Assembly (NCBI GenBank): GCA_937907435.1
Contig: CALCIA010000137.1
Span: 39,212-103,211, forward strand
Length of the DNA stretch: 64,000 nt
Reading direction: 5' to 3'
From: an uncultured Actinomycetes bacterium
GTDB lineage: Bacteria; Actinomycetota; Thermoleophilia; Solirubrobacterales; 70-9
The notes beneath the pieces were generated by a model. It saw nothing but the letters and a program-made list of their open reading frames with translations. It did no database searches and had not been told where the DNA came from. Below, in pieces: positions 3,264 through 42,099 of this stretch (its first letter is position 1; each line of letters starts with the position of its first letter). The translations under genes were made by a program, and so were the position numbers.

Positions 3264-3279
3264 ATGCATAGTTGTGCAT
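3264..3279. promoter_or_regulatory. AT-rich inverted repeat ATGCA-N6-TGCAT in the CDF promoter region
   Basis: ATGCAtagttgTGCAT is followed by TATATAAG, inside one of the few AT-rich patches of the window, about 25 nt upstream of the CDF start codon. Confidence 0.3.
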
Positions 3280-3307
3280 ATATAAGACGGACGACGCGGG
3301 CGCCTCG

Positions 3308-4812: not shown

Positions 4813-4904
4813 TCCAAGACGACCCTGACGTGGCCGGACTCCCCCGGCCCCGACGACCGCGTGGACGGACACGTCGCGCGGAGATCCGAGCGAAGGCGGT
4901 AGCG

Positions 4905-6013: not shown

Positions 6014-6025
6014 AAGGACACATCC

Positions 6026-6331
6026 ATGAGTACACAGACCCAGGAGCAACTCCTCTGCCCGAAGTGCCGTGGCGCGATGCGCACCTACGAGCGCAACGGC
6101 ATCACGATCGACCAGTGCGAAGAGTGTCGCGGGATCTTTCTCGACCGCGGCGAGCTCGAGCAGCTGATCGGAGCCGAGAGCTCCTATCTCGGTGCCGACC
6201 CCGAGACCCGAGGATCATTCTCCGACTACGTTCGCGGGGGAAAGGGTGGCCACCAGGGCGGTGGCCACGGCGGCAACGGCAAGCACGGCGGCAAGCGCCG
6301 ACGCGGCTTCTTCGGCGAGCTGTTCGATTGA
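6026..6331 (+). CDS. TFIIB-type zinc-ribbon protein (zf-TFIIB family)
   Basis: CPKCRGAM...DQCEECRGIFLDRGELEQL zinc ribbon plus a Gly/His-rich tail ending KRRRGFFGELFD, typical of this family. Confidence 0.85.
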   Translation: MSTQTQEQLLCPKCRGAMRTYERNGITIDQCEECRGIFLDRGELEQLIGAESSYLGADPETRGSFSDYVRGGKGGHQGGGHGGNGKHGGKRRRGFFGELFD

Positions 6332-6353
6332 CACGAAGCGAGATCGGCCCGGG

Positions 6354-6388
6354 CCGGATGGCGGGCGATTCCGTCGCCCTCCATCCGG
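6354..6388. terminator. GC-rich hairpin between convergent genes
   Basis: CCGGATGGCGGGCGAttccGTCGCCCTCCATCCGG lies between the zinc-ribbon gene (+) and mntH (-). No U-tract. Confidence 0.45.
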
Positions 6389-6400
6389 CATGATCGGCGA

Positions 6401-11401: not shown

Positions 11402-11761
11402 TCAGAGCCTCAGGACCTCCGAGATCGTCGGTCCCGCGCGGGACCGCGCCTCGAGCGCGGAGGCCGATACCAAACGAGCATTTAAGGAGCCAAGGTCGCG
11501 GTAGGGTCGGAGCCGCCGCTCCGCCCCGACCTCGGGGCAGATCGCAAGGCCGGCGGCGATGATGCCGGCGCAGACCATCGCGGCACCCATGGCCACCGCT
11601 GCGGCGCGGTCGTGGCCATGGTCCATCGGCATTGTCGAGCCATGATCCATCGGCATGATGCCGTGGTGGAGGGCCACCAGTAGCCCGAGGCAGACGATCA
11701 CGGCGGCCACCGTCCGGCTTGGACGGTAGGTCAATCTCTGTCTCAGGGAAAGTAGGCTCAA
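11402..11761 (-). CDS. small 2-TM His/Met-rich membrane protein (paralog 1 of 3)
   Basis: TM1 (AAVIVCLGLLVAL), then HHGIMPMDHGSTMPMDHGHD, then TM2 with Cys (AAMVCAGIIAAGLAIC). C-terminus ...SRAGPTISEVLRL is shared with the paralogs at 20294 and 25376. TTG start uncertain. Confidence 0.6.
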   Translation of the reverse strand: MSLLSLRQRLTYRPSRTVAAVIVCLGLLVALHHGIMPMDHGSTMPMDHGHDRAAAVAMGAAMVCAGIIAAGLAICPEVGAERRLRPYRDLGSLNARLVSASALEARSRAGPTISEVLRL

Positions 11762-16145: not shown

Positions 16146-16673
16146 ATGCCGGATGGAGACGAGATGTCGCGGCCAGGCGAGTCGACCGCGGCGAGCCGCA
16201 CTGCCGACTACGCGGCGCTCGAGGCCGTATTCGGCGTCGGCATGGTCGGGCTCATCGCGTTGACTTCTCGCCGTGAGCGGGACGGGGGTCATCCGATCTC
16301 GACTGAAGAGCTTGTCCTGCTGGCCATGTCGACGTTCACTCTCGCGGACGTCTTGGCCAAAGAGAGGATCTCGACCTGGCTCCGTGAGCCTTTCGTCGAG
16401 GAGGGAACGGATCACAAGCCCGTTCGCCCCGAGGGCAGCGGGATGCGCTACGCGATCGGTGAGCTCCTCACCTGTACGCGGTGCGTAGGAGCCTGGAGCG
16501 CGATGGGCCTGGTCGCCCTTCGGACCGCCTCGCCGACGGCCGGGCGGGCCACGATGCGTGTCTTGGCATTGGCCGGCGTCAACGATTTCCTGCAGAGCGC
16601 CTTTCGTCTTCTGGCCGAGCGCACGAATCGGGCGGCGGTAGAAACGGAAGCCGCTCGCCGTGCCCTTCCTTAG
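16146..16673 (+). CDS. DUF1360-like membrane protein
   Basis: Hydrophobic helices plus [18 protein letters not shown] (CxxC-x-W motif typical of DUF1360). Confidence 0.6.
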
Positions 16674-19087
16674 GGTCCCGACGAGGAGTCTGCGCCCGCC
16701 GTCTCGGTAACCGCCGGGAGCCGCGCCCGCTTCAGGAGCAGGGCGTTGACGGCGACGATGAAGCTCGACCCCGACATCGACAGTGCCGCAATCTCCGGGC
16801 GTAGCTCGAGCCCCAGCCAGGGTTGGAACACCCCCGCCGCGATCGGCAGGGCGACCGAGTTGTAGCCGATCGCCCAGCCAAGGTTCTGGTGCATTTTCCG
16901 CAGCGTCGCGCGGCCGATCGCCAGCGCGACCGGGACGTCGAGCGGGTCGGACCGCATCAGGACGACATCGGCGGTCTCGATCGCGACGTCGGTGCCGGCG
17001 CCGATAGCGATCCCGAGGTCGGCCTGGGCCAGGGCGGGGGCGTCGTTGACGCCGTCGCCGACCATCGCCACCTTGCGGCCGCCCTGCTGCAGCTCGCTCA
17101 CCTGCGCGGCCTTGTCGCCCGGCAGCACCTCGGCGATCACCGTGTCGATCCCGAGGCCGTCGGCTATCCGCCTCGCCGTCGCCTCGTTGTCGCCGGTCAA
17201 CATCACGACCTGGACGCCGGCCTCGTGCAGTGCGGCGACCGCGGCGGCGGAGGTCTCGCGAGGTGCGTCGGCGATCCCGATCACCGCCGCACCGCGGCCG
17301 TCGATGCCGACGAGCACGGCGGTCCGACCATCGGCAGCCATTTCGTCGCGGCGCCCGGCGAGGGAGCCGAGGTCGATCCCACGCTGCTCCATCAGCCGGC
17401 GGTTGCCGACCGCGACCGAGCGTCCTTCCACGGTGGCGAGAGCTCCATGGCCGGGCACGTTCTCGAACCCGCGGGGCTCGGCGCCGTCGGCACCCGCAGC
17501 CTCGGCGCGGCGCACGATCGCCGCCGCCAGGGGGTGCTCGGAGGAGCGCTCGACCGCTGCGACGATCCGCAGCAGCTCGGCTTCCCGGAAGCCGTCGCCG
17601 ACGACTACGTCGGTGACCTCGGGTTCGCCCTTGGTGAGCGTCCCGGTCTTGTCCATCACGACGGTGTCGATCCGGGCCGACGTTTCGAGCGCGATCGCGT
17701 TCTTGAAGAGGACGCCGCGTTTGGCGCCGAGGCCGGAGCCGACCATGATCGCCGTCGGCGTCGCCAGTCCGAGCGCGTCGGGGCAGGTGATGACCACCAC
17801 GGTGATCGCGAAGAGGATCGCGGTCGAGGTCGGTTCGGAGCTGAAGATCGCCCAGGCGGCGAAGGTGGCGGCGCCGCCGATCAGGGCGACGAGCACCAGC
17901 CAGAAGGCGGCGCGGTCGGCGAGCTTCTGCCCGGGAGCCTTCGAGTTCTGCGCCTCCTGGACGAGCTTGACGATCTGCGCCAGCGCCGAGTCGGCGCCGA
18001 CCTTGGTCGCCCGCACCCGCAGCGTCCCGTTGGCGTTGATCGTCGCGCCGATCACCTCCGAGCCCACCCCCTTGTGGACGGGCAGGCTCTCCCCGGTCAC
18101 CATCGACTCGTCGACCTCACTCTCGCCGTCGGTGACGACGCCGTCGACGGCGATCTTCGACCCGGGTCTCACCACCAGCAGGTCGCCCACGGCCACCTGC
18201 TCGGTCGGGATCTCGACCTGCTCGCCGTCGCGGAGCACCAGCGCCTTCGAGGGCGCCAGGTCGAGCAGGGTGCGGATCGCGTCGTTGGCGCCGCCGCGGG
18301 CACGCATCTCGAACCAGTGGCCGAGCAGGACGAAGGCGGCGAGGACGCTGGCCGCCTCGTAGAAGACGTCGCCGCCGCCGGTGAGGGTGACGCCGACCGA
18401 GTAGAGCCAGCCGGCCCCGACCCCCACCGCGACCAAGACCATCATGTCCAGGGTGCGCGCGCGTAGCGCCCGCAGCGCGCCGACAAAGAAGATCGAGCAC
18501 GAGTAGAAGATCACCGGCAGGCTGAGGATCAGCGTGAAGACGTCCTCGCGCAGGCCGAACGGCGGCGCGACGTGGAAGCCGAAGACGTCGGCGCCGATCT
18601 TCGACCACAACAGGATCGGCACCGAGAATACGGCGGCGACCAGGAAGCGGTTGCGCATGTCGGCGACCATCGAGGCCATCGACATCTCGCCGTGACCGCC
18701 GTGGCCCATGACCTCGTCGGGCGTGCCCCGCATCTGACCCTCCGGCTCTTGCCGCTCGGCCGGGGCGTGCACGTGCCCAGGCACCATCGCCGCGGCCAGA
18801 GGCGCAGGCGGATCGGGCTCCATCAGCGGATCGCAGACGTGCTCGGGCACCGACTGGCCTGCGCAGTGGTAGCCGCACTCGACGATCCAGTCGCGCAACT
18901 CCTCGACCGAGGCCTGCCCGGGGTCGTAGGTGACCGTGGCGGTCTGGGCGACCGGATTGGCCTCGACCTCGAGGACCCCCGGCCGTCGCCCGACCGCCGA
19001 CTCGACCACCGTCTTCTCCGAGGCTCGCAGCATGCCGCTCGCCTCGAGCACGACGGTCTCGGTCCCGCCGTCGGTCGGCGGACTCAT
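16670..19087 (-). CDS. CopB-like (P1B-3-like) heavy-metal P-type ATPase with CPD motif
   Basis: Degenerate HMA without CxxC ([10 protein letters not shown]). His/Met-rich stretch [38 protein letters not shown] (codon GAC verified on the DNA), [17 protein letters not shown]. Start set at ATG 19087. Confidence 0.9.
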
Positions 19088-19224
19088 GTAACGGCTCCAC
19101 GATCCACGCGGCTCACGTCCCCGAGCATCGCAGCCGTTTCGCTTCGCGGCATCGCCCCATGGTCCCGAGGCCGTCCCCATGGGAGGCTTGCGGCGGCGTG
19201 GCCCATGGACGAGACAAAAGCTCC

Positions 19225-19245
19225 ATAACTACATTATGTAGGAGC
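19225..19245. promoter_or_regulatory. palindromic operator site S2
   Basis: ATAACTACattatGTAGGAGC. 17 nt are identical to S16. On the minus strand CATAAT forms a -10-like box and an ATG lies 2 nt after the GTAG half. Confidence 0.7.
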
Positions 19246-20293: not shown

Positions 20294-20590
20294 TCAACGT
20301 CTGAGGACGACCATGCCGGGACGGGGGCCGGCGCGTGCCGGGACGGACGCGACGGGAAGGGTGAGAGCGGAGAGGATCGGGCGCACGTACCGGGCGAAAA
20401 GGGGTCGCGGCCTCGCCCTGGCGGCCAGGACCGCGAAGCCCGCGGCACCGCCGAGCACGGCGAGGCATATCGCGGCCATTCCCATCCCGTGCCCGTCTTC
20501 GGGCATGCCGTGGTGAACGAGCGTGACGCCACCGAGGAAGACGAGCACCAGGAGCAGCGCCAGTCGGCTTCTACTGCCGCGCGAGCTCAC
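20294..20590 (-). CDS. small 2-TM His/Met-rich membrane protein (paralog 2 of 3)
   Basis: LALLLVLVFLGGVTLVHHGMPEDGHGMGMAAICLAVLGGAAGFAVL...ARAGPRPGMVVLRR. GTG at 20590 lies one base after the upstream stop. Confidence 0.6.
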   Translation of the reverse strand: MSSRGSRSRLALLLVLVFLGGVTLVHHGMPEDGHGMGMAAICLAVLGGAAGFAVLAARARPRPLFARYVRPILSALTLPVASVPARAGPRPGMVVLRR

Positions 20591-20591
20591 G

Positions 20592-21122
20592 TCAGGCCGC
20601 TGAGTCGGGAGAGACCGGGATGGCGCAGGCACGTCGCGCGCCACGCAGGCGGACGAACAGCGCGGCGCCGGCCATCATCAGCCCCGCCGCGCCGAGGAAG
20701 GGCTGCATCGGGGCAAAGTAGTTGAAGGCGCCGGAGACGCCGAGCAGCGCGACCACGAGCTTGTTGCAGACCGGACAGCCGACGGCGAGCAGGCCGAGGA
20801 ATCCGCTGCCGGCGCTCGCGGCCGCGATCCGGTCGCGGGTCTCACGCGGCAGCACGTAGGTAGCCAGCAGGATCCCGGTCATGATGCTGCTACCGACCCA
20901 GAAGAAATAGTTGCCGGTTTCGGCGGGGATCATCCGCACGAACCAGGGATTGGGGACGATGTCGGTCGGGATCCCGAGCGCAAGCGCGACCAGGGCGATG
21001 CCGAGGATGGCGGTGATCAGAAAGCGTGGGCCCAGCAGCGAGAACAGCGTGGGCCGCTCATCGAATGGTTCCGTGGGTGTGGTGAAGGCTTCCATCGTGC
21101 GGGAAAGCGGGTCTGTGACCAC
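20592..21122 (-). CDS. 4-TM membrane protein with intramembrane CPVC motif
   Basis: 176 aa with hydrophobic helices. GLLAVGCPVCNKLVVALLGVSG. Start ambiguous (GTG 21122 or ATG 21095). Confidence 0.6.
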   Translation of the reverse strand: MVTDPLSRTMEAFTTPTEPFDERPTLFSLLGPRFLITAILGIALVALALGIPTDIVPNPWFVRMIPAETGNYFFWVGSSIMTGILLATYVLPRETRDRIAAASAGSGFLGLLAVGCPVCNKLVVALLGVSGAFNYFAPMQPFLGAAGLMMAGAALFVRLRGARRACAIPVSPDSAA

Positions 21123-21142
21123 ATCCTACAGACCGTAGGAAG
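21122..21142. promoter_or_regulatory. palindromic operator site S3
   Basis: CATCCTACagaccGTAGGAAG (perfect TCCTAC-N5-GTAGGA). Abuts the start of the CPVC membrane protein gene. Confidence 0.7.
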
Positions 21143-21171: not shown

Positions 21172-22134
21172 TCAGCCCTGGCAGGAGTGCGAGCCGCCCG
21201 CCGCAGCGACCGAGGCGACCCCGTCCCGGGCAAGGGCCGGGGTCGCGGCCGCCGTCAGGACGACCAGCGCGACAAGGCTGACGACGAGGGCACGGCCTGA
21301 GAGCTCCACCCAGGCCCGGGGGCGGGCTTTGGTGCGGTCGAGCAGGAAGCGCAGCCGCGCAGCCGTTCCGACCCCGGCAAGGCCGGCAAGCGCCGGACTG
21401 GTCGGCGGTTGGCCTGCGGCGGCTTTGCAGATCGCGCTCGCCAGGGCGACCGGATCGCCGACCCGGCCCACCGCGTACTCGTCGGCGTCGCGCTCGAGGC
21501 AGAACCGGAGCCTTCCGAGCGCGTCGTTGCTGCCGGGAAGCACCCGCGCCAGGGCGAAGGCCACGCTTCCCGCCAAGGCCAGGTAGGGGTGTCGGTGGGC
21601 GATGTGGCCGCGCTCGTGCTCGAGCCCGGCCGCCAGCTCCCCTTCGTCGAGCTTCGCCAGGGCACCGGTGGAGACGATGATCCTGGCGTCGCGGATGCCG
21701 GCGGCGGCGACGACGACATCGGGGCCGCCGATGATCAGGCTCTGGCGGGGTCCCTCGCCGAGGCAGTTGCGGTGAAGCCAACGACGCACGGTGCGGGCGG
21801 TGCGCCAGACGGCGAACACGGCCCAGATCAGCGAGAGGCCGAGGACGAGACCTGGGAGCAGGGTGGCAGCGTCCCCGAGCCGATGGCCCGAGAAGCCCAG
21901 GTGGGTCGCGAAGAAGGGGAGGACCGCGTGGATGCACCAGTGGGTGGTGAGTTGGAAGAGCTGGGTCGCCGGAAGGTAGAGGACGAGGACCAGGGCGCCG
22001 ACGACGACAAGAAGGGCGCGCAGGACGAGCACCGATAACCAGATCGCGGCACCCGTCAGCGGCGTGAGCGCGTCGCGGGGAAGAAGATAGGGAACGGCCG
22101 TCCCGAGCAGGAGCAGGCCGGCGAGGACGATCAT
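21172..22134 (-). CDS. M56 family (BlaR1/MecR1-like) membrane metalloprotease, no sensor domain (pair 1)
   Basis: N-terminal TM helices, HERGHIAHRHP (HExxH), 320 aa with no penicillin-binding domain. Start overlaps the BlaI-like stop (ATGA). Confidence 0.85.
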   Translation of the reverse strand: MIVLAGLLLLGTAVPYLLPRDALTPLTGAAIWLSVLVLRALLVVVGALVLVLYLPATQLFQLTTHWCIHAVLPFFATHLGFSGHRLGDAATLLPGLVLGLSLIWAVFAVWRTARTVRRWLHRNCLGEGPRQSLIIGGPDVVVAAAGIRDARIIVSTGALAKLDEGELAAGLEHERGHIAHRHPYLALAGSVAFALARVLPGSNDALGRLRFCLERDADEYAVGRVGDPVALASAICKAAAGQPPTSPALAGLAGVGTAARLRFLLDRTKARPRAWVELSGRALVVSLVALVVLTAAATPALARDGVASVAAAGGSHSCQG

Positions 22135-22535
22135 CTCGACTTCTTGCCGCCGCGCCTCGCCGCCACCTCGCGGGCGAGCGCCTCGATCTCGTCGAGCTCA
22201 CCCGGGTCCATGTCACCGACGAGGTGGGCCAGCGCCGTACGGCGGGCGCCGTCGGAGGCCGACGCCAAGGTCTCCTGCACCGAGCGCGAGTAGTAGTCGC
22301 CCTCGCTGACCTTCGTCGCGTAGAAGATCGCCTTGCCCTGGCGCTGGCGGACCAGCAGGCCACGCTCGGCAAGGCGGTTGAGCACGGTCTGCACGGTCGT
22401 ATAGGCGCCGCGTTGGCGGTCGGGAAGCTCGTTGCGGACATCGTCGACGCTGGCCGCCCGACCGAGCCGCCAGAGCGCCCTCATCACCTCGATCTGCAAC
22501 TCGCCCTGTAGCTGGACTGCGGTTTCGCGGGCCAT
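22131..22535 (-). CDS. BlaI/MecI/CopY family winged-helix repressor (pair 1)
   Basis: LQIEVMRALWRLGRAASVDDVRNEL...AYTTVQTVLNRLAERGLLVRQRQGKAIFYATKV. Start set at ATG 22535. Confidence 0.85.
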   Translation of the reverse strand: MARETAVQLQGELQIEVMRALWRLGRAASVDDVRNELPDRQRGAYTTVQTVLNRLAERGLLVRQRQGKAIFYATKVSEGDYYSRSVQETLASASDGARRTALAHLVGDMDPGELDEIEALAREVAARRGGKKSR

Positions 22536-22541
22536 CGTCAG

Positions 22542-22562
22542 AAGCCTACATGGCGTCGGGAC
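22542..22562. promoter_or_regulatory. palindromic operator site S4 (autoregulatory position)
   Basis: AAGCCTACatggcGTCGGGAC. On the minus strand it reads GTAGGCTTctgacgATG, i.e. TAGGCT -10-like box 7 nt before the BlaI-like start. Confidence 0.5.
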
Positions 22563-22639
22563 GCCTTCCTCCTGACGCCATGTCGTCGGCCGCAACACAG
22601 GTTGCAGGTGTCAGCCGCGGAACCCGTCACCCAAGGTAG

Positions 22640-22660
22640 GTTCCTACAGTGTGTAGGGAT
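22640..22660. promoter_or_regulatory. palindromic operator site S5
   Basis: GTTCCTACagtgtGTAGGGAT. 66 nt upstream of the M23/cyclase operon. Confidence 0.7.
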
Positions 22661-22725
22661 TGAGCCACCGGGTGTGCCGTTGTCGTCCGGGCAGCGGCAT
22701 ACCCGGTGGCTTGATCGTCCCTCCG

Positions 22726-23943
22726 ATGCCGCCCGAAAACGACAGACGAACGCCGGCCCTGGCGGCGATCGCGTTCGCCCTCCTGCTCGGCGGCGCGGTG
22801 ATCGTCTCGGCAATCGCCTATTCGCCTGTCGCCAGCGCGACCACCCGGTCCCGGCTCGAAAGCGCGCAGGCCAAGCTCGAAAAGACCGAAGAACGCGAAG
22901 GGGTCCTGACCACCACCCTGTCCCGCTTCGACGACCGGATCGCGGGCCTGGAACGACGGACCGCGGCGTTGCGCGGACGCGAGGCGGCGGTCGGTGAAGA
23001 GCTCGCGGCAAGACAGGCGGAACTGGAAGGCGCCGAAGCCGCCGTCGGACAGGCAAGGCACCACCTCGAGGTGGTGCGCGGCCGGCTGAAGCGGGCGCTG
23101 ATCGTCCTGCGGGACCGGCTCGTGGCGATCTATGAGAACGGGAGCCCGGACATCGTCAGCATCCTGGTCTCCTCCGGCGACATGTCGGAACTGGCCGCCA
23201 CGAGCGAATACGTCTCCCGGATCCAGAGCGCCGACGAAGCGGTCGTCGACCGCGTCCGCTCGCTGCGTGATCAGGCGAGCCGCACGACGCTGCGGCTGGA
23301 GGGCGCAGCGACACAGATCGAAGCCGCGCGCGACCAGATCGCCGCGCGTGAGCACGAACTTGCCCAGGCGCGGGCATCCGTCGAGGCCCGTCAAGGGGAA
23401 CTGGTCGCCACCCGCGCCGACCGTCAGAGCACGCTCGATCAGGTGGAAGTCGAGGCCGACCACTTCGGCGCCAACGTGCGGGCGCTGCAACAGAAGATCG
23501 CCGAAGAAATCACCCAGGCATCCTCGTCGGTGCCATTGCCCGCGGGACCGGCGGCGGGCGGGATCAGCTCCAGCGGCCTGATCTGGCCGGTGGAAGGGGT
23601 GATCACCTCCGGGTTCGGGCCGCGCTGGGGCAGCTTCCACCCCGGCATCGACATCGGGGTGCCGGAAGGGACGCCGATCAAGGCCGCGGCGTCGGGCACG
23701 GTCGTCCTCCTGCAATCGGAGGCCGAAAGCGGCGGCTACGGCAACTACACCTGTATCGACCACGGCGGGGGGCTCTCGACCTGCTACGCCCACCAGACGG
23801 AATTCGCGACCTCGCTGGGCGCAAGCGTGAGCCAGGGTGAAGTGATCGGATATGTCGGCAACACCGGCTTCAGCACCGGCCCACACCTTCATTTCGAGGT
23901 CCGCGTCGAAGGCGAACCGCAAGACCCGCTCGGCTACCTCTAG
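22726..23943 (+). CDS. coiled-coil M23 family peptidoglycan metalloendopeptidase (paralog of 2004..3170)
   Basis: Signal anchor, coiled coil, WPVEGVITSGFGPRWGSFHPGIDIG...GNYTCIDH...GNTGFSTGPHLHFEV. Start set at ATG 22726. Confidence 0.9.
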   Translation: MPPENDRRTPALAAIAFALLLGGAVIVSAIAYSPVASATTRSRLESAQAKLEKTEEREGVLTTTLSRFDDRIAGLERRTAALRGREAAVGEELAARQAELEGAEAAVGQARHHLEVVRGRLKRALIVLRDRLVAIYENGSPDIVSILVSSGDMSELAATSEYVSRIQSADEAVVDRVRSLRDQASRTTLRLEGAATQIEAARDQIAAREHELAQARASVEARQGELVATRADRQSTLDQVEVEADHFGANVRALQQKIAEEITQASSSVPLPAGPAAGGISSSGLIWPVEGVITSGFGPRWGSFHPGIDIGVPEGTPIKAAASGTVVLLQSEAESGGYGNYTCIDHGGGLSTCYAHQTEFATSLGASVSQGEVIGYVGNTGFSTGPHLHFEVRVEGEPQDPLGYL

Positions 23944-23948
23944 TCACC

Positions 23949-24623
23949 GTGACCGATCAAACGTTCATCTTCGCCGACATGTCGGGCTTCGCGGCGTTGA
24001 CCGAGGCGCACGGGGACGAGGCGGCGGCCGACCTGGCCGCCGACTTCTCCGCCGCGGTACGGCCGCGGCTGGAAAGGCGCGAGGCCGAGGAGGTGAAGAG
24101 CATCGGCGATGCACTGATGATCCGCGGCGAGGACGCGGGCGAATCGATCGGCCTCGGCCTGGAAATCGTCCACGAGGTCGGCGGCCAGCACCGTTTCCCG
24201 ACGATCCGAGTCGGTATGCATACCGGGCCCGCGACCGAGCGAGAGGGCGATTGGTTCGGCTCCACCGTCAATCTTGCCGCGCGGATCGCCGGGGAGGCCG
24301 CCGGTGGCGAGGTGCTGGTATCGGAGTCCACGCGCTCGGCCCTGGCGCGCCCGGAGCGGTTCAACTTCCGCGAGCGCGGGCGTGTCCATCTACGGAACAT
24401 CTCCGAGCCGGCCCTGCTGTTCTCGGTGCTACGGCGGGGTCTGCTGGCGACCGGCGATCTGCCCCTCGATCCGGTCTGCCGCATGGCCATCGATCCGGAG
24501 GGCTCGGCCGGCTCGCTCGAGCACCGCGGCACGGCTTACATCTTCTGTTCGCTCGCCTGCGCGGAGCGCTTCGCCGCCGACCCCGAGCTCTTCGCCGGTA
24601 GGCCCGGCGCCGAGCACGGCTGA
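23949..24623 (+). CDS. class III adenylate/guanylate cyclase domain fused to a C-terminal YHS (TRASH-type) metal-binding domain
   Basis: FIFADMSGFAALTE, KSIGDALM, VGMHTGPA, TVNLAARI (cyclase motifs). Then DPVCRMAID...GTAYIFCSLACAERFAADPELF (YHS). Confidence 0.85.
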   Translation: MTDQTFIFADMSGFAALTEAHGDEAAADLAADFSAAVRPRLERREAEEVKSIGDALMIRGEDAGESIGLGLEIVHEVGGQHRFPTIRVGMHTGPATEREGDWFGSTVNLAARIAGEAAGGEVLVSESTRSALARPERFNFRERGRVHLRNISEPALLFSVLRRGLLATGDLPLDPVCRMAIDPEGSAGSLEHRGTAYIFCSLACAERFAADPELFAGRPGAEHG

Positions 24624-24686: not shown

Positions 24687-25298
24687 TCAACCCTTCGGGA
24701 CGCCACCCGCCGGCGACGGCGCGCCGTACCACTCGGTGCGCCACGTGTTCATCTCGCGGATCTCCTTCGCCTGGGCGCGGACGATCCCCCTGGCGAGGCT
24801 CCGCAACTGCCCGTCGGCGCCGCGCTTCAGCTCGACACGGGCCATCCGGATCGCCCCCTGATGATGGGGGATCATCATGTCGATGAACTCTCGGTCGAAG
24901 GGTTTCGCGCCGTCGAGGTCGCCCATTTCCATATCCATGCCGGCCTGCTTCATCGTCAGGCCGAGGGTGTCGAGGCCTTCCATCATCGCCATGTGATCGC
25001 CGGTGCTGACGGGCTTCACGCCGAGGCTCCTGGCGATCTTCTTCAGCTGGACGATCTCTTCAGACTGTGCTTTGACGATCGCCCTCGCGGTCGACTTGAT
25101 CTGGCCGTGTTCGGCCTGATCGATCGCCATCCGGGCCATTTCGATGGCCATCTCGTGGTGCATCGGCATCTCGCTCACGAATGCCTTGTCGGTCGCATTG
25201 GCGGCGGGGGCGGCGGAAGCGCTAGTGGCTCCGAGGCCGGCCAGGACGGCCAGGGCCAGGACGGCCGCGAGCAGGGCCCGTCTCTTGATCTGCTTCAT
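24687..25298 (-). CDS. DUF305 secreted protein (copy 2)
   Basis: Signal peptide. FVSEMPMHHEMAIEMA and FIDMMIPHHQGAIRMA repeats. Tail WYGAPSPAGGVPKG resembles that of copy 1. Confidence 0.85.
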   Translation of the reverse strand: MKQIKRRALLAAVLALAVLAGLGATSASAAPAANATDKAFVSEMPMHHEMAIEMARMAIDQAEHGQIKSTARAIVKAQSEEIVQLKKIARSLGVKPVSTGDHMAMMEGLDTLGLTMKQAGMDMEMGDLDGAKPFDREFIDMMIPHHQGAIRMARVELKRGADGQLRSLARGIVRAQAKEIREMNTWRTEWYGAPSPAGGVPKG

Positions 25299-25375: not shown

Positions 25376-25774
25376 TCAAGTTCGGAGAACCGAGAGCCGT
25401 AGGTAGAGGGGTCCCGCTCTCGCGCGAGGACTCGGCGAGGGCGGGACCCTGGGCAGCCGCCGCGGGGCACGCGACAGCGAGGGTCGAGGCCGGCCCGGCC
25501 GGTGTGTCCGCGGACGGGCGACGAGGAGGGCGACACCGCCGATGACGGCAAGGCAGATGCTCCCTGCCATGCCGTCCATTCCCTTGGGCTCGACGTGGTG
25601 CGTGACGATCAGGCCGCCGAGTGCGAGCACGGCCAGCAGCAGAAGAAGGCGCCGGCGCGTACCGCGCGGCGCCGCGCGTAGCCGTAGGACCACGCCTGCA
25701 TCGCCGGCCGTCGGGGAGTGGTGCGCCTGGCCTTGCATCCTCCATATAGATAGCAACGTCGCACCTCCGGTCAT
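25376..25774 (-). CDS. small 2-TM His-rich membrane protein (paralog 3 of 3)
   Basis: LLLLLAVLALGGLIVTHHVEPKGMDGMAGSICLAVIGGVALLV...ARAGPLYLRLSVLRT. Start ambiguous (ATG 25774 or 25738). Confidence 0.55.
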   Translation of the reverse strand: MTGGATLLSIWRMQGQAHHSPTAGDAGVVLRLRAAPRGTRRRLLLLLAVLALGGLIVTHHVEPKGMDGMAGSICLAVIGGVALLVARPRTHRPGRPRPSLSRAPRRLPRVPPSPSPRARAGPLYLRLSVLRT

Positions 25775-25794
25775 ATCCTACGTCGCGTAGGATG
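25774..25794. promoter_or_regulatory. palindromic operator site S6
   Basis: TATCCTACgtcgcGTAGGATG (perfect TCCTAC-N5-GTAGGA) in a 25-nt divergent gap. TAGGAT lies 6 nt before GTG 25800. Confidence 0.7.
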
Positions 25795-27338: not shown

Positions 27339-28193
27339 ATGACCGCCTCGATCCCCAGCCCGAGCTCGAGTGGGCTCGCGGTCGGGCCCTTCGAAATCCA
27401 CGTCTACGGGCTGATGTACGCGATCGCGGTGGTCGCGGCGGTGCTGATCACGGTGCGCCGCTGGGAGGCCCAGGGCGGCTCGCGCGAGACCGTCTACGAC
27501 TGCGCCATCTGGGGCTTCCCGGCGGGTCTGATCGGCGGCCGCCTCTATTTCGACATCACCAGCTTCTCCGAAATGCCCCACACCTGGTGGGGTCCGTTCG
27601 CCGTCTGGGACGGCGGCCTGGGGATCTGGGGCGGGATCGCCCTCGGTACGGCAGTCGGCATCTGGCGGCTGCGCCGGGCAGGCGTCTCCGTTCCCGAGTT
27701 CATGGACGCGGCGGCGCCGGCGCTGCTGGTCGCCCAGGCGATCGGCCGGATCGGCAACTACTTCAACCAGGAGCTCTTCGGCGGGCCCACCAGCCTGCCG
27801 TGGGGCCTGGAGATCTCGGCCGCGCACCGGCCTGACGGCTACGCCGCCTACTCGACCTTTCAGCCAACCTTCCTCTACGAGTTGATCTGGAACCTCTGCC
27901 TAGCCGGCTTCCTGGTCTGGCTCGGACACCACCGCAGGATCCGCCCGCCCGGCCTCTTCGCTCTCTACGTCACCGGCTACTCGGCCTTCCGGATCTTCGA
28001 GGAGTCGCTGCGGGTCGATCCCGCCCACCACTTCCTCGGCCTGCGCCTCAACTTCTTCGTCGCCTGCATCCTCACGGTCGCCGGCGCCGTCTGGTTCATC
28101 GCCAGCCAACGGCGGGGACCGAAGTCGGCGGGCGAGGCGCCGGGGGAGCCGCGGCCGGCCCGAGATGTCGCTGTCCCTCGATCGGATCAGTAG
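27339..28193 (+). CDS. lgt: prolipoprotein diacylglyceryl transferase
   Basis: YGLMYAIAV..., GGRLYF, GGLGIWGGI, QAIGRIGNYFNQELFGGPT...PWGLEI, FQPTFLYE. GAGGAGGG SD. Confidence 0.9.
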   Translation: MTASIPSPSSSGLAVGPFEIHVYGLMYAIAVVAAVLITVRRWEAQGGSRETVYDCAIWGFPAGLIGGRLYFDITSFSEMPHTWWGPFAVWDGGLGIWGGIALGTAVGIWRLRRAGVSVPEFMDAAAPALLVAQAIGRIGNYFNQELFGGPTSLPWGLEISAAHRPDGYAAYSTFQPTFLYELIWNLCLAGFLVWLGHHRRIRPPGLFALYVTGYSAFRIFEESLRVDPAHHFLGLRLNFFVACILTVAGAVWFIASQRRGPKSAGEAPGEPRPARDVAVPRSDQ

Positions 28194-30194: not shown

Positions 30195-30831
30195 TTATTC
30201 GGGCTTGCGCGCCGCCACCCGCTCGACGATCCCCCACTTCGAGCGCTCCGGCTCGGTGACCTCGAAGCCGGCGGCGCCCAGGTACCCCAGCGTCTTGCGG
30301 GTCAGGTGATCGGCCGCGAAGCGGACGCTCAGCGGCTCCATGAGGCGCTCCGCCACGCGCACGGCCCGCACCGGGCTGCGGACGTGCTCGAGCACCGCGA
30401 AGAGCCCGCCCGTGCATAGGACGCGGAAGACCTCGCGGGCCGCGGCGCCCGGGTCGGGGATCGTGCAGAAGGCGAGGGTGCAGAGGACGCTGTCGAAGCT
30501 CGCGTCGGGAAAGTCGAGCGCCTGGGCGTCACCCACGCGGAGGTCCGCCTCGCGGCCGAGCTCCTGCTTCGGGATCGCCAGCATCTCGGGGCTCAGCTCG
30601 ATCCCGGTCAAGGTGACGTCGGCGCGATGGAGCGGCAGGTTTCGCCCGGTGCCGAGCGCGATCTCCAGCACCTAGCCCTCGGGTCGCGAGCAGGCCCACT
30701 CGCGCCCGCCCGCGAAGAGCACCCGATCGAAAAGGGCCATCTGGCGGTCGTAGCGCGGCCGCCTCCTTGTCCTGGAGGGCGCGGACGCGCTCGGTCTCCT
30801 TGCGTGTGGCGTCTGGGATCGGTTCAGCCAT
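30195..30831 (-). pseudogene. class I SAM-dependent methyltransferase with one frameshift and one in-frame TAG
   Basis: N-terminus MAEPIPDATRKETERVRALQDKEAA is in one frame. RYDRQMALFDRVLFAGGREWACSRPEG is in the next frame. TAG at 30672-30674 sits directly before VLEIALGTGRNLP... (SAM motif). Confidence 0.55.
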
Positions 30832-31780
30832 CGGCCCAGGCGCGCCGCCGCCGCAGCGCATGGCCGGAGAGGAGCAGTGCGGCTATCGCGAGGGTCGCAG
30901 GACCGCAGATCATCAGCCCGGCACAGGCCGCGGCGAGCAGCAGAGGCACCTGCAGGTTCGGATCGAGGATGCCGTGCCAGATCGAGAAGCTCGCCGCCAC
31001 CAGCGCCGCGAGCGCGAGCAGGCTGCGCGCCAACGGCGAGCTCGGGAGCCGCCAGCGTGTCACCTCGGGATCGCCCATCAGGTGATCGATGCGTTCGGGG
31101 GCCAGGCCGACGACCACAGCCGGCCGCCCCGAGGACTCCGAGAACTTGAGAAGGGCGGCGGCGAGCGGGGCGCGGCTGCCGCTCGCCGCCACCGCCGCCT
31201 CGTCGGCCGCAAGCTCGCCGAGCGCGGCATAGCGCTCGCTGCTGCGGCGCAGGATCGGGATGAAGAAGAGCGCGTCGGCAAGGGTGCGCGCCGCGAGCAG
31301 GCGCAGGGGGTCGCGGCGGCGCGCGTGGTGGGACTCGTGGAAGAGGACGGCGCGCAGCTCGGCCGGCTCGAGTTGCTCAACCGCACCTTGGCTCAGGTAG
31401 ACCTGGGGGCGCAGGTAGCCGGCGCAGAAGGCGCGCGGCTCGGAAGAGTCGATCAGCCGGCAGCCGACCCCCTCGATGTCGACCGACTCGGCGCTCGGCC
31501 GCTGGGCGATCAGGTAGCGTCGGCTGGCGCGAAGCTGGCGGCGAAGCGAGCGCGTTCCGAGGCCGAGGGCCGCAAGCGCCAGCACCGCGATCGAGAGCCC
31601 GAGCAGCGAGGCGGGTCCGCCGGCACCCAGCCAGTTTTCGCAGGCCGCCGAGATCGCCTGCGAGCTCGGGACGGCGAGGCTCTGCCTGGTGACGATCAGC
31701 GTCGCGGCGGCGGCGAGGAGGACCGCCGCCAGCGTCGCAAGCACCAAATGCAGGAGGTAGAGCCGCCCGGCGCCCCGCAT
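30824..31780 (-). CDS. M56 family (BlaR1-like) membrane metalloprotease, no sensor domain (pair 2)
   Basis: TM helices, LFHESHHARRRDP (HExxH), about 318 aa. ATG 31780 shares one base with the BlaI-like stop. Confidence 0.8.
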   Translation of the reverse strand: MRGAGRLYLLHLVLATLAAVLLAAAATLIVTRQSLAVPSSQAISAACENWLGAGGPASLLGLSIAVLALAALGLGTRSLRRQLRASRRYLIAQRPSAESVDIEGVGCRLIDSSEPRAFCAGYLRPQVYLSQGAVEQLEPAELRAVLFHESHHARRRDPLRLLAARTLADALFFIPILRRSSERYAALGELAADEAAVAASGSRAPLAAALLKFSESSGRPAVVVGLAPERIDHLMGDPEVTRWRLPSSPLARSLLALAALVAASFSIWHGILDPNLQVPLLLAAACAGLMICGPATLAIAALLLSGHALRRRRAWADG

Positions 31781-32169
31781 CAAGAACCTTTGGCGAGTTT
31801 TCGCAGCGCGGCACGGCGCTTGGGGTCGACGCTTCCGAGCTGACGGGCGAAGTGGGCGAGGGCGAGGTCGCCGTAGTCGGCGACCAACTCGTCGACCCTG
31901 CTCTGCGCGCGGGCCTCGAGGTACTCGTCACGGCTCATCGTCGGACGATAGAAGTGGGTCTTGCCTCGCTTCCGCCGCCGCAGGAATCCCTTTTTCTCAA
32001 GCCTCGCCATGATCGTCATGATCGTCGTGTAGGCGCGCTGCTTGCGGCCCGAGTTGAGCGTCTCCAGCACCTCACGCACGGTCGTCTCTTCGCGCTCCCA
32101 GACCTCCTCCATGACCTCCGACTCGAGTTCATGCAGCGGGGGTGGTCCTGGGCTTTGTCCTGTGGCCAT
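31780..32169 (-). CDS. BlaI/MecI/CopY family winged-helix repressor (pair 2)
   Basis: LESEVMEEVWEREETTVREVLETLNSGRKQRAYTTIMTIMARLEKKGFLRRRKRGKTHFYRPTM. Confidence 0.85.
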   Translation of the reverse strand: MATGQSPGPPPLHELESEVMEEVWEREETTVREVLETLNSGRKQRAYTTIMTIMARLEKKGFLRRRKRGKTHFYRPTMSRDEYLEARAQSRVDELVADYGDLALAHFARQLGSVDPKRRAALRKLAKGS

Positions 32170-37998: not shown

Positions 37999-38622
37999 TC
38001 AGTAGCCGAGCGGGTGGCGTACGGCCAACTTCCCCGACACGACCGAGGCCGTGTCCGCGTACCAGCGCGGACCGGTGCCGTCGGCCGAGCCGGCGGTGTC
38101 CCAGCGCAGCCCGGCGATCACCGCGTAGGTGTGGCCGGCATTGGCGTAGACGGAGATCCACCTGCCGGCTTCAGGTTCGCCCCAGCTCATCAGGCCGGTC
38201 GAGTCGAGTGGCGAGGTGATCAGCCCGCCGCCCCGCAGGGCGTAGCTGACCGCACCCGAGCAGTCATAGCCAGTGTCCCACCATTTGCCGTGCCCGCCAC
38301 CCCAGACGTAGGGCTTGGTGCGGATCCGGTTCGCCCATTCGATCACCTTCTTCACGGCGGGAGGGGCGCTCGCCGGTGCGATCGCCATGCCTTCGACCAG
38401 CTTCGCCCTGGCTCCCGGCACGGTGGGGACGGGCGTCGTTCCCGGCACGGCGGCGACAGGCGGCGCTTCGGTCGAGGTTTCCGGCGCGCAGGGATCCTGG
38501 CCGGCCGAGACGCCACCGAACTGGTTGCAGGCGGCCGAGGCGCCGCCGGTGTTGATCAGTAAGGCGAGGAGGACGAGAGCCAGTGCCCCTCCCAGCCGAG
38601 TTCTCTTTGAAAGCAAGACCAT
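37999..38622 (-). CDS. secreted NlpC/P60 (C40) cell-wall peptidase
   Basis: Signal peptide. KPYVWGGGHGKWWDTGYDCSGAVSYAL catalytic Cys motif. ...AGHTYAVIAG. Confidence 0.85.
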   Translation of the reverse strand: MVLLSKRTRLGGALALVLLALLINTGGASAACNQFGGVSAGQDPCAPETSTEAPPVAAVPGTTPVPTVPGARAKLVEGMAIAPASAPPAVKKVIEWANRIRTKPYVWGGGHGKWWDTGYDCSGAVSYALRGGGLITSPLDSTGLMSWGEPEAGRWISVYANAGHTYAVIAGLRWDTAGSADGTGPRWYADTASVVSGKLAVRHPLGY

Positions 38623-38629
38623 CTCCTTC

Positions 38630-38765
38630 GTCGGCCTACGGAGTTAGCTGACGGGCTCGCGCTGAAAGAGATCGCGCTACGGACTCAAATGTCCGATTCG
38701 CCCCGCGGGGCCGATGTGGCCCCTGTGGTTCCCCCGTTCCGCGTCATTCAGGCGCGGATTCGGCA
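38630..38765 (-). promoter_or_regulatory. c-di-AMP (ydaO/yuaA-type) riboswitch, copy 2
   Basis: Minus-strand RNA: GCGGAACGGGGGAACC ... GGGGCGAAUC ... GAGCCCGUCAGCUAACUCCGUAGGCCGACGAAGGAGAUG. It is collinear with copy 1, and the SD/start of the NlpC/P60 gene lies in the 3' arm. Confidence 0.8.
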
Positions 38766-38792
38766 TAGCTTTGACGCGGCAATATACAGACT

Positions 38793-39358: not shown

Positions 39359-39379
39359 ACTCCTACAGGGTGTAGGATA
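39359..39379. promoter_or_regulatory. palindromic operator site S13
   Basis: ACTCCTACagggtGTAGGATA. TACAGT -10-like box, then ATG 39390 six nt later. Confidence 0.7.
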
Positions 39380-42078: not shown

Positions 42079-42099
42079 ACTCCTACGATTTGTAGTATC
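42079..42099. promoter_or_regulatory. palindromic operator site S14
   Basis: ACTCCTACgatttGTAGTATC. TAGTAT -10-like box 10 nt before ATG 42109. Confidence 0.7.

Follow-up and report, generated by a model that had tools for sequence, protein, structure and literature searches.

The closest described relative of the protein reported here is MpAC of M. phlei (GenBank EID14989.1), in which a short linker connects a single class IIIc cyclase domain to a YHS domain at the C-terminus. MpAC is an adenylyl cyclase that is switched on by micromolar Cu2+ via its YHS domain (PMC4626032). In the presence of Mn2+, 1-10 µM Cu2+ led to a 6-fold activation, and with Mg2+ the addition of Cu2+ turned the activity from off to on (PMC4626032). 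Zn2+, Fe2+/3+, Cr3+, Co2+, and Ni2+ did not activate the enzyme; the copper effect, for which copper was given as Cu2+ only, depended on the YHS domain and could be reversed by EDTA (PMC4626032). The linkers of this family are 8-11 residues long (PMC4626032). Its physiological role was left "open to speculation" (Linder 2015; PMC4626032), and we did not find one described for the AC-YHS family in the literature.

Other known systems share only parts of this organization. The mycobacterial class IIIc adenylyl cyclases Rv1264, Ma1120, and Rv1900c carry an N-terminal pH-sensing domain, an N-terminal autoinhibitory segment, and an alpha/beta-hydrolase domain, respectively, but no YHS domain. The YHS domains of copper P-type ATPases, toluene-4-monooxygenase, and L24e belong to the same small Cys-rich family with conserved Asp and Cys positions, and the TRASH protein L24e bound Cd2+ in crystals (PMC4626032). 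Unlike in those proteins, the YHS domain described below is fused to a signaling enzyme as a putative allosteric sensor and is not part of a transporter or the ribosome.

Here, we analyze an AC-YHS gene in a stretch of 64,000 nt (referred to as the window) from an uncultured member of the Solirubrobacterales (Thermoleophilia). The features of the locus are collected in Table 1.

Table 1. Positions of the AC-YHS gene, its domains, and other features within the window
Feature	Position	Strand	Remarks
c-di-AMP riboswitch	1820-1973	-	precedes other M23 gene, 975-1817
P1B-type copper ATPase (CopA/CopB-like)	16670-19180	-	His/Met-rich N-terminus
Operator site	19229-19241		just upstream of the P1B-type ATPase gene
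BlaR1-like membrane metalloprotease, M48/M56	21172-22134	-	Peptidase_M48 (PF01435), E 1.5e-6; HExxH motif is HERGH
BlaI/MecI/CopY-family repressor	22131-22598	-	Penicillinase_R (PF03965), E 6.7e-24; probable ATG 22535
Palindromic operator-like site	22642-22659	.	TCCTACAGTGTGTAGGGA; also given as TCCTACAGTGTGTAGG, 22642-22657
Coiled-coil M23 (LytM-type) endopeptidase	22660-23943	+	Pfam Peptidase_M23, E 2.4e-32
Spacer TCACC, M23 stop to cyclase GTG	23944-23948	+	5 nt; TAG stop at 23941-23943
AC-YHS gene	23949-24623	+	224 aa, GTG start, TGA stop (ORF and translation)
Cyclase homology domain	23961-24395	+	aa 5-149 by Pfam; fold reaches ∼aa 162
Flexible linker, cyclase to YHS	24435-24461	+	∼9 aa (aa 163-171)
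YHS domain	24468-24599	+	aa 174-217; putative ligands D174, C177, C200, C204
DUF305/CopM periplasmic copper-binding protein	24687-25298	-	DUF305, E 3.1e-36; convergent with cyclase
Second BlaI-like/BlaR1-like pair	31780-32169 and 30824-31783
c-di-AMP riboswitch	38618-38775	-	precedes unannotated 207-aa ORF, 37999-38622

The AC-YHS protein and its cyclase domain

A preliminary description of the locus, made from the sequence alone, had read the protein as a nucleotide cyclase fused to a YHS domain and had quoted four cyclase motifs, all of which are present in the translation. Profile searches bear out the fusion: both domains exceed their Pfam cut-offs, Guanylate_cyc (PF00211) with an E value of 2.8e-16 (60.1 bits versus 21.9) and YHS (PF04945) with one of 5.9e-10 (39.4 bits versus 30.3), so the YHS match also survives an HMM search. 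In the AF2 monomer model (mean pLDDT 86.6), the two domains are confidently folded and separated by a disordered, flexible linker, whose pLDDT falls below 50 at aa 166-169; the YHS domain is not confidently docked. The protein has neither a signal peptide nor a transmembrane segment. Its ORF has a GC3 of 0.87, no second AC-YHS copy was found in the window, and a 98% identical protein is annotated as "YHS domain-containing protein" in a public MAG.

The cyclase domain has six predicted catalytic residues, namely D10 and D54 for metal binding, K50 and D101 for adenine recognition, and N108 and R112 for the transition state. They are invariant in 35 Thermoleophilia homologues (alignment A1) and in a second alignment (A3) of six sequences from three Actinomycetota classes and Rhizobium (Rhodococcus, Iamia, two Mycolicibacterium, Rhizobium), and MpAC likewise has all six. 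In chain 1y10_A of Rv1264 they align to positions 222 and 265 (metal-binding Asp residues), 261 and 312 (K50 in VKSIGD and D101 in GDWFG), and 319 and 323 (N108 and R112). Degeneration of the catalytic residues, which the preliminary description had named as an argument against its reading, is thus not seen. Adenine specificity goes with a Lys/Asp pair and guanine specificity with Glu/Cys or Glu/Ser. Since K50 and D101 form a Lys/Asp pair, the substrate is predicted to be ATP and the product cAMP, not cGMP. Where cAMP, cGMP, or another NMP had initially been considered, only cAMP is therefore retained.

Furthermore, the arm between G93 and D101 comprises seven residues (PATEREG), as many as in the aligned segment of Rv1264; a short dimerization arm of ∼7 residues is typical for class IIIc. 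Rv1264, Ma1120, and Rv1900c match the domain best, in sequence as well as in fold, and share with it the short arm and the catalytic residues. The phmmer E values against the PDB range from 7e-21 (Rv1264) and 8e-20 (Ma1120) to 2e-8. The best Foldseek matches in the PDB are the same three proteins, all class IIIc mycobacterial adenylyl cyclases, with TM scores of 0.83-0.90 if normalized to the isolated cyclase-domain chains of Ma1120 and Rv1900c and of ∼0.4 for the Rv1264 holoenzyme. The corresponding structures are 1y10/1y11 (Rv1264), 4wp3-4wpa (Ma1120), and 1ybt/1ybu (Rv1900c). By profile, catalytic residues, substrate pair, and arm, the domain has the sequence characters of an adenylyl-specific class III cyclase of subclass IIIc.

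The YHS domain and its genomic setting

The putative ligands of the YHS domain are arranged as D-x2-C-x22-C-x3-C, and all four are invariant in alignments A1 and A3. Their spacing is identical to that of the MpAC ligands D178, C181, C204, and C208; the residues before the second Cys differ (YIF in the window protein, WW in MpAC). The window protein (224 aa) and MpAC (233 aa) have the same domain order. A search by length and WW-x-C motif did not find the M. phlei protein among 270 retrieved proteins; Mycolicibacterium, Rhodococcus, Iamia, and Rhizobium plasmid homologues stand in for the MpAC sequence in the mycobacterial comparison. Homology between the window protein and the members from mycobacteria and Rhizobium extends over the full length, but its identity to the aligned mycobacterial homologues is only 37-38%, and it comes from another class. 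Domain order, linker, the Asp and three Cys residues, and full-length homology all mark it, at the level of sequence, as an MpAC-type protein. The earlier suggestion that metal status is converted into a cyclic-nucleotide signal agrees with the published activation of a homologue by Cu2+ via its YHS domain (PMC4626032). From this homology and from the copper genes described below, we infer that the window protein behaves like MpAC, that is, performs copper-activated cAMP synthesis.

The cyclase had been placed in a copper island, and our profile searches and translations did find metal genes all around it. The island encodes three P-type ATPases, an HMA (CopZ-like) protein, two DUF305/CopM proteins, and a CopC-CopD fusion, as well as two CDF transporters, an Nramp, and a ZIP transporter. 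The immediate neighbors of the cyclase gene are of copper type: CopM/DUF305 (NCBIfam CopM, 110 bits versus a cut-off of 90), the CopB-like ATPase, and a Met-rich YtkA-like protein. The envelope genes of the island comprise three M23 peptidases, a YkuD L,D-transpeptidase, and two Lgt genes. At the right end of the window lie TcpC-like and VirB4-like conjugation genes.

The preliminary description regarded the fusion and its copper setting as unusual, which does not hold for either. The architecture was published and characterized in 2015 (PMC4626032), and we found it at 326 loci in species-representative genomes, forming ∼230 clusters at 50% identity. By tblastn, 35 plasmid records from Mycolicibacterium, Mycobacterium, Rhodococcus, Tsukamurella, Iamia, and Rhizobium contain homologues with at least 80% query coverage and 32-44% identity. 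As for the setting, about half of the related loci likewise lie among metal genes: at least one metal gene occurs within 5 kb in 39 of 80 related loci, and in the other half no recognizable metal gene was found within this distance. The density of metal-homeostasis genes falls ∼8-fold over 10 kb away from AC-YHS, from 1.22 per 10 kb at up to 2.5 kb to 0.15 at 7.5-10 kb. P-type ATPases resembling the P1B-type ATPase of the window are found within 5 kb of AC-YHS at 15 of the 80 loci.

The arrangement of these neighbors varies between lineages. CsoR is encoded directly upstream of AC-YHS on the same strand at five loci (gaps of 6-15 nt) and a multicopper oxidase at four. Plasmids of cultured bacteria show further arrangements. 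On the Rhizobium johnstonii plasmid pRL11, AC-YHS is divergent from CueR-CopA; on an Iamia plasmid, an ArsR-family regulator is followed by a P-type ATPase gene, the end of which overlaps the start of AC-YHS; and on a Rhodococcus plasmid a multicopper oxidase and a two-component system are encoded nearby. In Gaiellaceae, the cyclase gene is followed after 13 nt by a gene for a fusion of transporter, HEAT, and cNMP-binding domains (locus L050, 6286-9213). What is new here is this neighborhood of the cyclase gene, a recurrent metal-homeostasis setting in many lineages of several phyla.

A metal-gated adenylyl cyclase could in principle also respond to another thiophilic metal (Zn, Cd, Ag, or Hg), or the signal could be that the YHS cysteines become oxidized. 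An Asp with three Cys also fits Zn(II) and Cd(II), as the Cd2+ bound by L24e illustrates (PMC4626032), and the window encodes CDF, ZIP, and Nramp proteins and a third P-type ATPase. Some homologues adjoin ArsR/SmtB regulators together with P-type ATPases of unassigned metal, and therefore metal selectivity may differ between AC-YHS members. Nevertheless, we consider such a signal unlikely for the window protein: MpAC is not activated by Zn2+, Co2+, Ni2+, Fe2+/3+, or Cr3+, and EDTA reverses its activation, which argues against an irreversible oxidation (PMC4626032). Moreover, the immediate neighbors here are of copper type, and elsewhere CsoR, CueR-CopA, and multicopper oxidase accompany the gene. 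Copper thus remains our preferred ligand.

The two c-di-AMP riboswitches that had been noted in the same window are real (73 and 77 bits versus a gathering score of 38). They are 14 and 22 kb distant from the cyclase and lead other genes, and we found no connection between them and AC-YHS. To our knowledge, class III cyclases do not make c-di-AMP.

The M23 gene and the operator

The cyclase gene directly follows the gene for the M23 peptidase, and the ORF coordinates agree with the 5-nt gap reported before. This short gap implies co-transcription and, probably, translational coupling of the two genes. No Shine-Dalgarno sequence was found before the cyclase GTG, by a scan that is weak evidence in high-GC actinobacteria, and no sigma-70 promoter or intrinsic terminator was detected between positions 22400 and 25000, by a scan that is uninformative for such an organism. 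The probable true start of the M23 protein is the ATG at 22726 (MPPENDRR...), which is followed by an N-terminal membrane anchor. The protein matches DipM, MepM, and EnvC-like models of NCBIfam and shares 48% identity, along the full length, with a paralogue encoded at 2004-3170. It is probably catalytically active, because the translation contains the zinc-ligand motifs HxxxD (HPGID) and HxH (HLH).

The preliminary description also located the pair behind an operator. A palindrome is indeed present in the divergent intergenic region between the blaI-like and M23 genes, 67 nt 5' of the M23 ATG, with the conserved form TCCTAC-N5-GTAGG. Its core, CTAC-N5-GTAG, occurs eight times in the window, compared to 0.17 expected sites, and all eight are intergenic. 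Upstream of the pair, the block TTCCTACAGTnnGTAGG is invariant between the window and the related loci L001, L003, and L005, while the remaining spacer has diverged (alignment A2). Among the related loci, the core motif is found almost wholly where a BlaI-like repressor is present, and the extended form only there; the palindrome thus accompanies BlaI/BlaR1-like gene pairs. We rejected the classical cop box TACAnnTGTA as the operator, because its sole match lies within the M23 coding region; the box is absent from the intergenic regions of the window.

The most likely ligand of the operator is the BlaI-like repressor encoded next to it; the window also encodes a second such repressor-protease pair. 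As in the BlaI/MecI/CopY and BlaR1/MecR1 systems, a winged-helix Penicillinase_R gene overlaps (here by 4 nt) the gene for an HExxH protease, and the operator is a TACA/TGTA-type palindrome. Differences concern the half-sites, here TCCTAC and GTAGGA with a spacing of 5 nt, and the proteins themselves: the repressor lacks the C-terminal Cys motif (the Cys hook) of CopY (51 bits with the CopY_TcrY model versus a cut-off of 122) and a penicillin-binding sensor domain is missing from the protease. Furthermore, the members of the predicted regulon are copper and envelope genes rather than beta-lactamase genes. Neither an M23 partner nor a BlaI-type operator is part of what is known of MpAC, whose genomic context and physiological role have no description.

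The cyclase and the M23 peptidase might be viewed as a dedicated pair, in which peptidoglycan hydrolysis is under the direct control of cAMP or of the cyclase protein itself and copper sensing is secondary. Gap and gene order are kept in the window and at L001, L002, L003, and L005, and the island contains the further M23, YkuD, and Lgt genes mentioned above. On a Mycolicibacterium aubagnense plasmid, ∼2.4 kb separate AC-YHS from RipB, a peptidoglycan endopeptidase, and from a BlaI/M56 pair. But 75 of the 80 related loci lack the M23 linkage, as do all plasmid homologues that we examined, and at L004 and L011 operator sites precede AC-YHS itself, at 97 and 172 nt, with no M23 gene in between. 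In addition, the M23 protein is membrane-anchored and extracytoplasmic, whereas AC-YHS has no export signal, so direct contact is unlikely. We therefore hold a dedicated pair to be very improbable. The coupling itself is real: four of the 80 related loci show it, plus one weak case. It is specific to the lineage of the closest relatives, and we reject it as a family property.

The likelihood of a Pycsar-type anti-phage or other defense cyclase on a mobile element is negligible, and we rejected it: apart from the conjugation genes, it could draw on a PADLOC PycC match, which is weak, partial, and marginal (E 8.5e-4, 16.9 bits, 46 residues) and covers the conserved cyclase core only, while K50/D101 specifies adenine, no Pycsar effector is adjacent (the neighbors are M23, CopM, and metal-homeostasis genes), and the family member that was assayed is a copper-regulated adenylyl cyclase (PMC4626032).

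Proposed mechanism

Taken together, we regard it as likely that AC-YHS is a copper-sensing class IIIc adenylyl cyclase in an M23 operon with a BlaI-type operator. The enzyme would be a cytoplasmic homodimer with the C-terminal YHS domain as its copper sensor. Copper, in vivo probably as Cu(I), would bind to D174, C177, C200, and C204. Binding would be passed on via the linker of ∼9 residues and move the cyclase dimer to its active state, and the conversion of ATP to cAMP would then turn the cytoplasmic copper load into a cAMP signal. As the second cistron of the operon, behind the M23 endopeptidase, the cyclase would share its operator, TCCTAC-N5-GTAGG, with seven or more further transcription units in the island of copper and envelope genes. 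The adjacent BlaI-like repressor would most likely occupy this operator and be released by its BlaR1-like protease. A downstream cAMP receptor has to be postulated; none is encoded in the window, where Pfam scans of ∼50 ORFs turned up neither a cNMP_binding nor a Crp-type receptor. The sole Crp-like HTH match, which was sub-threshold, fell into an ArsR-family protein (56917-57264).

More tentatively, and with considerable doubt, this mechanism may be extended to the whole family. AC-YHS could be a recurrent, horizontally mobile part of copper regulons of the CsoR, CueR, or BlaI/BlaR1-like type, with cAMP as a general copper-stress messenger in soil Actinomycetota and rhizobia. In the Solirubrobacterales lineage, cAMP and the LytM-type endopeptidase would take part in a copper-triggered remodeling of the envelope, together with Lgt, YkuD, M23, CcmE/F, and TlpA under the same operator, and in Gaiellaceae cAMP would act on the transporter-HEAT-cNMP-binding fusion.

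Significance

A copper-switched adenylyl cyclase has already been published (PMC4626032), and therefore the gene itself is not a discovery. Instead, the comparative data make the question of its physiological role concrete and testable. In several phyla, AC-YHS is repeatedly wired into copper operons, where it follows CsoR or a multicopper oxidase, diverges from CueR-CopA, or belongs to a BlaI-type regulon; in some lineages a cNMP-binding transporter fusion comes after the cyclase. If our explanation is true, cAMP would join the known circuitry of the copper response, and the BlaI/BlaR1-like regulon of the window would represent a further kind of metal or envelope-stress switch.

The AC-YHS protein combines an intact class III cyclase with a YHS domain

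The gene starts with GTG and encodes 224 aa, and its GC3 of 0.87 is typical for real genes of this high-GC window. Both domains named in the preliminary description were recovered above their Pfam cut-offs. Residues 5-149 match the adenylate/guanylate cyclase catalytic domain (PF00211; E 2.8e-16; 60.1 bits, cut-off 21.9) and residues 174-217 the YHS domain (PF04945; E 5.9e-10; 39.4 bits, cut-off 30.3), so the YHS assignment survives the HMM search. We aligned the protein with 34 Thermoleophilia homologues (55-98% identity) and, separately, with annotated homologues from Rhodococcus, Iamia, two Mycolicibacterium species, and Rhizobium johnstonii (32-43% identity). The residues predicted to bind the metal cofactors (D10, D54), to determine adenine specificity (K50, D101), and to stabilize the transition state (N108, R112), as well as the predicted YHS metal ligands (D174, C177, C200, C204), are invariant in both alignments. 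Moreover, phmmer aligns the six catalytic residues with positions 222, 261, 265, 312, 319, and 323 of the chain of Rv1264, a pH-sensing cyclase of solved structure. Because of this invariance and the match to Rv1264, catalytic degeneracy can be excluded. The product had initially been given as cAMP, cGMP, or another cyclic nucleotide; inspection of the substrate-specifying residues favors the first, since the Lys/Asp pair K50/D101 predicts ATP as the substrate and hence cAMP.

The G93-D101 arm comprises 7 residues, a length shared with class IIIc enzymes. The AlphaFold2 model derived from the Thermoleophilia alignment (mean pLDDT 86.6) contains two confidently folded domains, connected by a linker of low confidence at residues 166-169. 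Its best PDB fold matches in Foldseek are the class IIIc mycobacterial cyclases Ma1120, Rv1264, and Rv1900c (E 6e-17 to 1e-13), with TM scores of 0.83-0.90 when normalized to the isolated cyclase domains.

AC-YHS proteins form a large family with a copper-responsive precedent

A word-indexed protein search yielded 3287 hits at E <= 1e-3. Both domains are present in each of the top 120 (57-98% identity), several of which already bear the name "class 3 adenylate cyclase/YHS domain-containing protein". When 50%-identity representatives were searched exhaustively, 230 clusters matched at E <= 1e-30, mostly over the full length, and a scan of one genome per species identified 326 loci, the best 80 of which all belong to Thermoleophilia (Solirubrobacterales, Thermoleophilaceae, Gaiellales). 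One related locus, L001, shares 97% identity and synteny with the window, and several MAGs carry two or three paralogues. Homologues are also found on 38 plasmids of cultured Rhizobium, Mycolicibacterium, Mycobacterium, Rhodococcus, Tsukamurella, Sinorhizobium, Agrobacterium, and Iamia. Given these numbers, the fusion is common and not, as first thought, unusual.

In a full-text literature search, a single paper proved to bear directly on this architecture (Linder 2015, PLoS One, PMC4626032); no later work following it up was found in the literature searched. The paper describes proteins in which one class IIIc cyclase domain is joined by 8-11 linker residues to a YHS domain at the C-terminus; 26 such sequences were known at that time, mostly from mycobacteria and Rhizobium. 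The characterized enzyme is the 233-aa protein of Mycobacterium phlei (MpAC). With Mn2+ as cofactor, Cu2+ at 1-10 uM stimulates full-length MpAC six-fold, and with Mg2+ copper turns it from inactive to active; on the catalytic domain alone, the sole effect of Cu2+ is inhibition. Activation is reversible by EDTA, and D178, C181, C204, and C208 were proposed as copper ligands (PMC4626032). The window protein shares both the architecture and the ligand spacing D-x2-C-x22-C-x3-C and is a new Thermoleophilia member of this known family. Zn, Fe, Cr, Co, and Ni had no effect on MpAC (PMC4626032), and we regard it as unlikely that the true input of the window protein is another thiophilic metal or a redox signal. 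The suggested connection between metal status and second messenger was the right functional idea, but it is not new, having been published in 2015 for MpAC. The physiological role was said to remain "open to speculation" (PMC4626032).

AC-YHS genes adjoin copper genes in several lineages

Genes were called by GC3 in the 80 Thermoleophilia loci, and neighbors within four genes of the cyclase were clustered. Among the 62 loci with a called cyclase, the recurrent neighbor families were SAM methyltransferases (13/62), CsoR-type repressors and ArsP-type permeases (10/62 each), BlaI-like repressors (9/62), MMPL transporters (8/62), multicopper oxidases (7/62), P1B ATPases (6/62; 15/80 within 5 kb by tblastn), and cNMP-binding proteins (5/62). 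The gene immediately upstream on the same strand encodes CsoR in five loci (gaps of 6-15 nt) and a multicopper oxidase in four. At least one recognized metal-homeostasis gene lies within 5 kb of the cyclase in 39 of the 80 loci, and the density of such genes falls from 1.22 per 10 kb at <2.5 kb to 0.15 per 10 kb at 7.5-10 kb.

Comparable neighborhoods occur on plasmids. On pRL11 of Rhizobium johnstonii, the AC-YHS gene is divergent from CueR-CopA, with DUF305 and four-helix-bundle copper protein genes nearby. On the Iamia plasmid, the cyclase start is overlapped by a P-type ATPase gene, itself behind an ArsR-family regulator, in a region also encoding CcmF, TlpA, CcdA, and LspA. A multicopper oxidase and a two-component system accompany the Rhodococcus homologue, and an ArsR-family regulator and a P-type ATPase that of Mycolicibacterium crocinum. 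Plasmid pJCM15296 of Mycolicibacterium aubagnense (1596-6627) carries, in this order, BlaI/MecI/CopY and M56 protease genes, ripB for an NlpC/P60 peptidoglycan endopeptidase, a TetR regulator gene, and AC-YHS. Thus, a BlaI-type pair and a peptidoglycan endopeptidase are found near AC-YHS in a distant actinobacterium, as in the window.

In three Gaiellaceae loci (L050 6286-9213, L063 10631-13558, L066 10655-13585), a gene 13 nt 3' of the cyclase encodes a 975-aa protein with an MFS/TLC-like transporter region, HEAT repeats, and a cNMP-binding domain. As a candidate cAMP-gated transporter, this fusion would act downstream of the copper-sensing cyclase. In L050 and L063, genes for a flavoprotein and a multicopper oxidase (HMBD, His-rich inserts) precede AC-YHS. 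No cNMP-binding protein was found within the window itself.

Features of the window
Feature	Position	Strand	Remarks
M23 peptidase gene	975-1817	-	led by riboswitch
c-di-AMP riboswitch	1820-1973	-	leads M23 gene 975-1817
M23 peptidase gene	2004-3170	-	coiled-coil
Small His-rich membrane protein	11402-11761	-	
Core site	19229-19241		downstream: CopA-like ATPase
Small His-rich membrane protein	20294-20644	-	
Core site	21126-21138		downstream: 176-aa membrane protein
BlaR1-like protease gene	21172-22134	-	
blaI-like gene	22131-22598	-	
Inverted repeat GCAACACAGGTTGC	22592-22605		
Palindrome TCCTACAGTGTGTAGG	22642-22657		between blaI-like and M23 genes
Core site	22644-22656		downstream: blaI-like gene and M23, divergent
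M23 gene, coiled-coil, membrane-anchored	22660-23943	+	Peptidase_M23 E 2.4e-32 (Pfam); probable ATG start 22726
AC-YHS	23949-24623	+	
Small His-rich membrane protein	25376-25774	-	
Core site	25778-25790		downstream: MFS-spermidine synthase fusion
Lgt gene	27339-28193	+	
Second BlaR1/M56-like protease gene	30824-31783	-	
Second BlaI-like repressor gene	31780-32169	-	
207-aa secreted-looking protein	37999-38622	-	no Pfam match
c-di-AMP riboswitch	38618-38775	-	leads 37999-38622
Core site	39363-39375		downstream: methyltransferase
YkuD L,D-transpeptidase gene	41012-42046	+	
Core site	42083-42095		downstream: TlpA-like protein
Core site	45270-45282		downstream: CcmE
Lgt gene	47921-49159	+	
Core site	50137-50149		downstream: methyltransferase operon
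TcpC-like and VirB4-like (AAA_10) conjugation genes	57502-63998	+	right window end

Coupling to the M23 peptidase is lineage-specific

As initially described, 5 nt separate the TAG stop of the M23 gene from the cyclase GTG. The M23 protein retains the HxxxD and HxH zinc-ligand motifs. Among the 80 loci, a directly upstream M23 gene with the same gap occurs only in L001, L002, L003, and L005; L040 is one weaker case, and these M23-coupled cyclases are the ones most similar to the query. The coupling is thus real yet lineage-specific. That cyclase and peptidase form a dedicated pair is very improbable despite their adjacency, since the pairing is phyletically restricted and the two proteins reside in different cellular compartments.

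The island holds three M23 peptidases, because two further genes add to the cyclase-coupled one. The coiled-coil protein encoded at 2004-3170 is 48% identical over its full length to the cyclase-coupled M23, and its gene lies directly upstream of the riboswitch-led M23 gene. Both c-di-AMP riboswitches were confirmed; the implied link between them and the cyclase was not supported.

A putative BlaI-type operator recurs in the metal island

The core CTAC-N5-GTAG of the palindrome TCCTACAGTGTGTAGG (extended form TCCTAC-N5-GTAGGA) occurs eight times in the window, with 0.17 expected, and always in intergenic positions. The genes behind these sites have copper, cytochrome-c-biogenesis, thiol-redox, methyltransferase, and cell-wall functions. 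In the region preceding M23, the window, L001, L003, and L005 share the block TTCCTACAGTnnGTAGG without any change, with the rest of the spacer diverged. Among the 80 loci, the core is found almost entirely where a BlaI-like repressor is present; in L004 and L011, which have no M23 gene there, the core precedes the cyclase gene itself, by 97 and 172 nt. The palindrome probably serves as operator for a copper or envelope-stress regulon, undescribed in the literature searched. The classical cop box TACAnnTGTA is not used as operator.

The window contains two BlaI/BlaR1-like pairs, whose repressors are 31% identical to each other. Both repressors lack the CopY Cys hook, and both proteases lack the penicillin-binding sensor domain. 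The blaI-like/M23 intergenic region holds a second inverted repeat, GCAACACAGGTTGC, whose core GCAA...GGTTGC does not vary between the window, L001, L003, and L005; this repeat possibly acts as a promoter element or as another operator.

The copper-island setting was borne out by three P-type ATPases, an HMA (CopZ-like) protein, two DUF305/CopM genes, and a CopC-CopD fusion, together with two CDF transporters, Nramp, ZIP, CcmE/F, a DsbD/CcdA-type protein, a TlpA-like protein, and the M23, Lgt, and YkuD enzymes. One of the two prolipoprotein diacylglyceryl transferase (Lgt) genes is located directly 3' of an operator-controlled gene; the Lgt paralogues and YkuD possibly serve as copper-tolerant replacements for envelope enzymes. 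Three small paralogous membrane proteins share a His-rich motif around HHG.P.D.GH and have no Pfam match. Because two of them directly adjoin DUF305/CopM genes, they are possibly an uncharacterized copper-handling partner of CopM. With conjugation genes at the right window end, the island possibly belongs to an integrative conjugative element or to a plasmid; the large number of AC-YHS homologues on plasmids would be in line with this.

Proposed signaling pathway

The M23/AC-YHS operon would be transcribed under control of the TCCTAC-N5-GTAGG operator, as would further copper and envelope genes in the island. By analogy to MpAC, for which copper activation has been demonstrated, the cytoplasmic cyclase dimer would be inactive with Mg-ATP until copper occupies the Asp and three-Cys site in its YHS domain. 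Judging from the thiolate ligands and from cytoplasmic chemistry, the form bound in vivo would be Cu(I). The activated dimer is predicted from K50/D101 to produce cAMP, which would act on receptors encoded elsewhere in the genome, and candidates for these adjoin the cyclase in other lineages. A Pycsar-type defense role is effectively excluded.

Co-expression with a LytM-type endopeptidase that is predicted to be active suggests a possible link to wall remodeling under copper stress. The added value is modest: it consists of evidence that the AC-YHS family is wired into copper regulons across lineages, and of the putative BlaI-type operator and regulon of the island.
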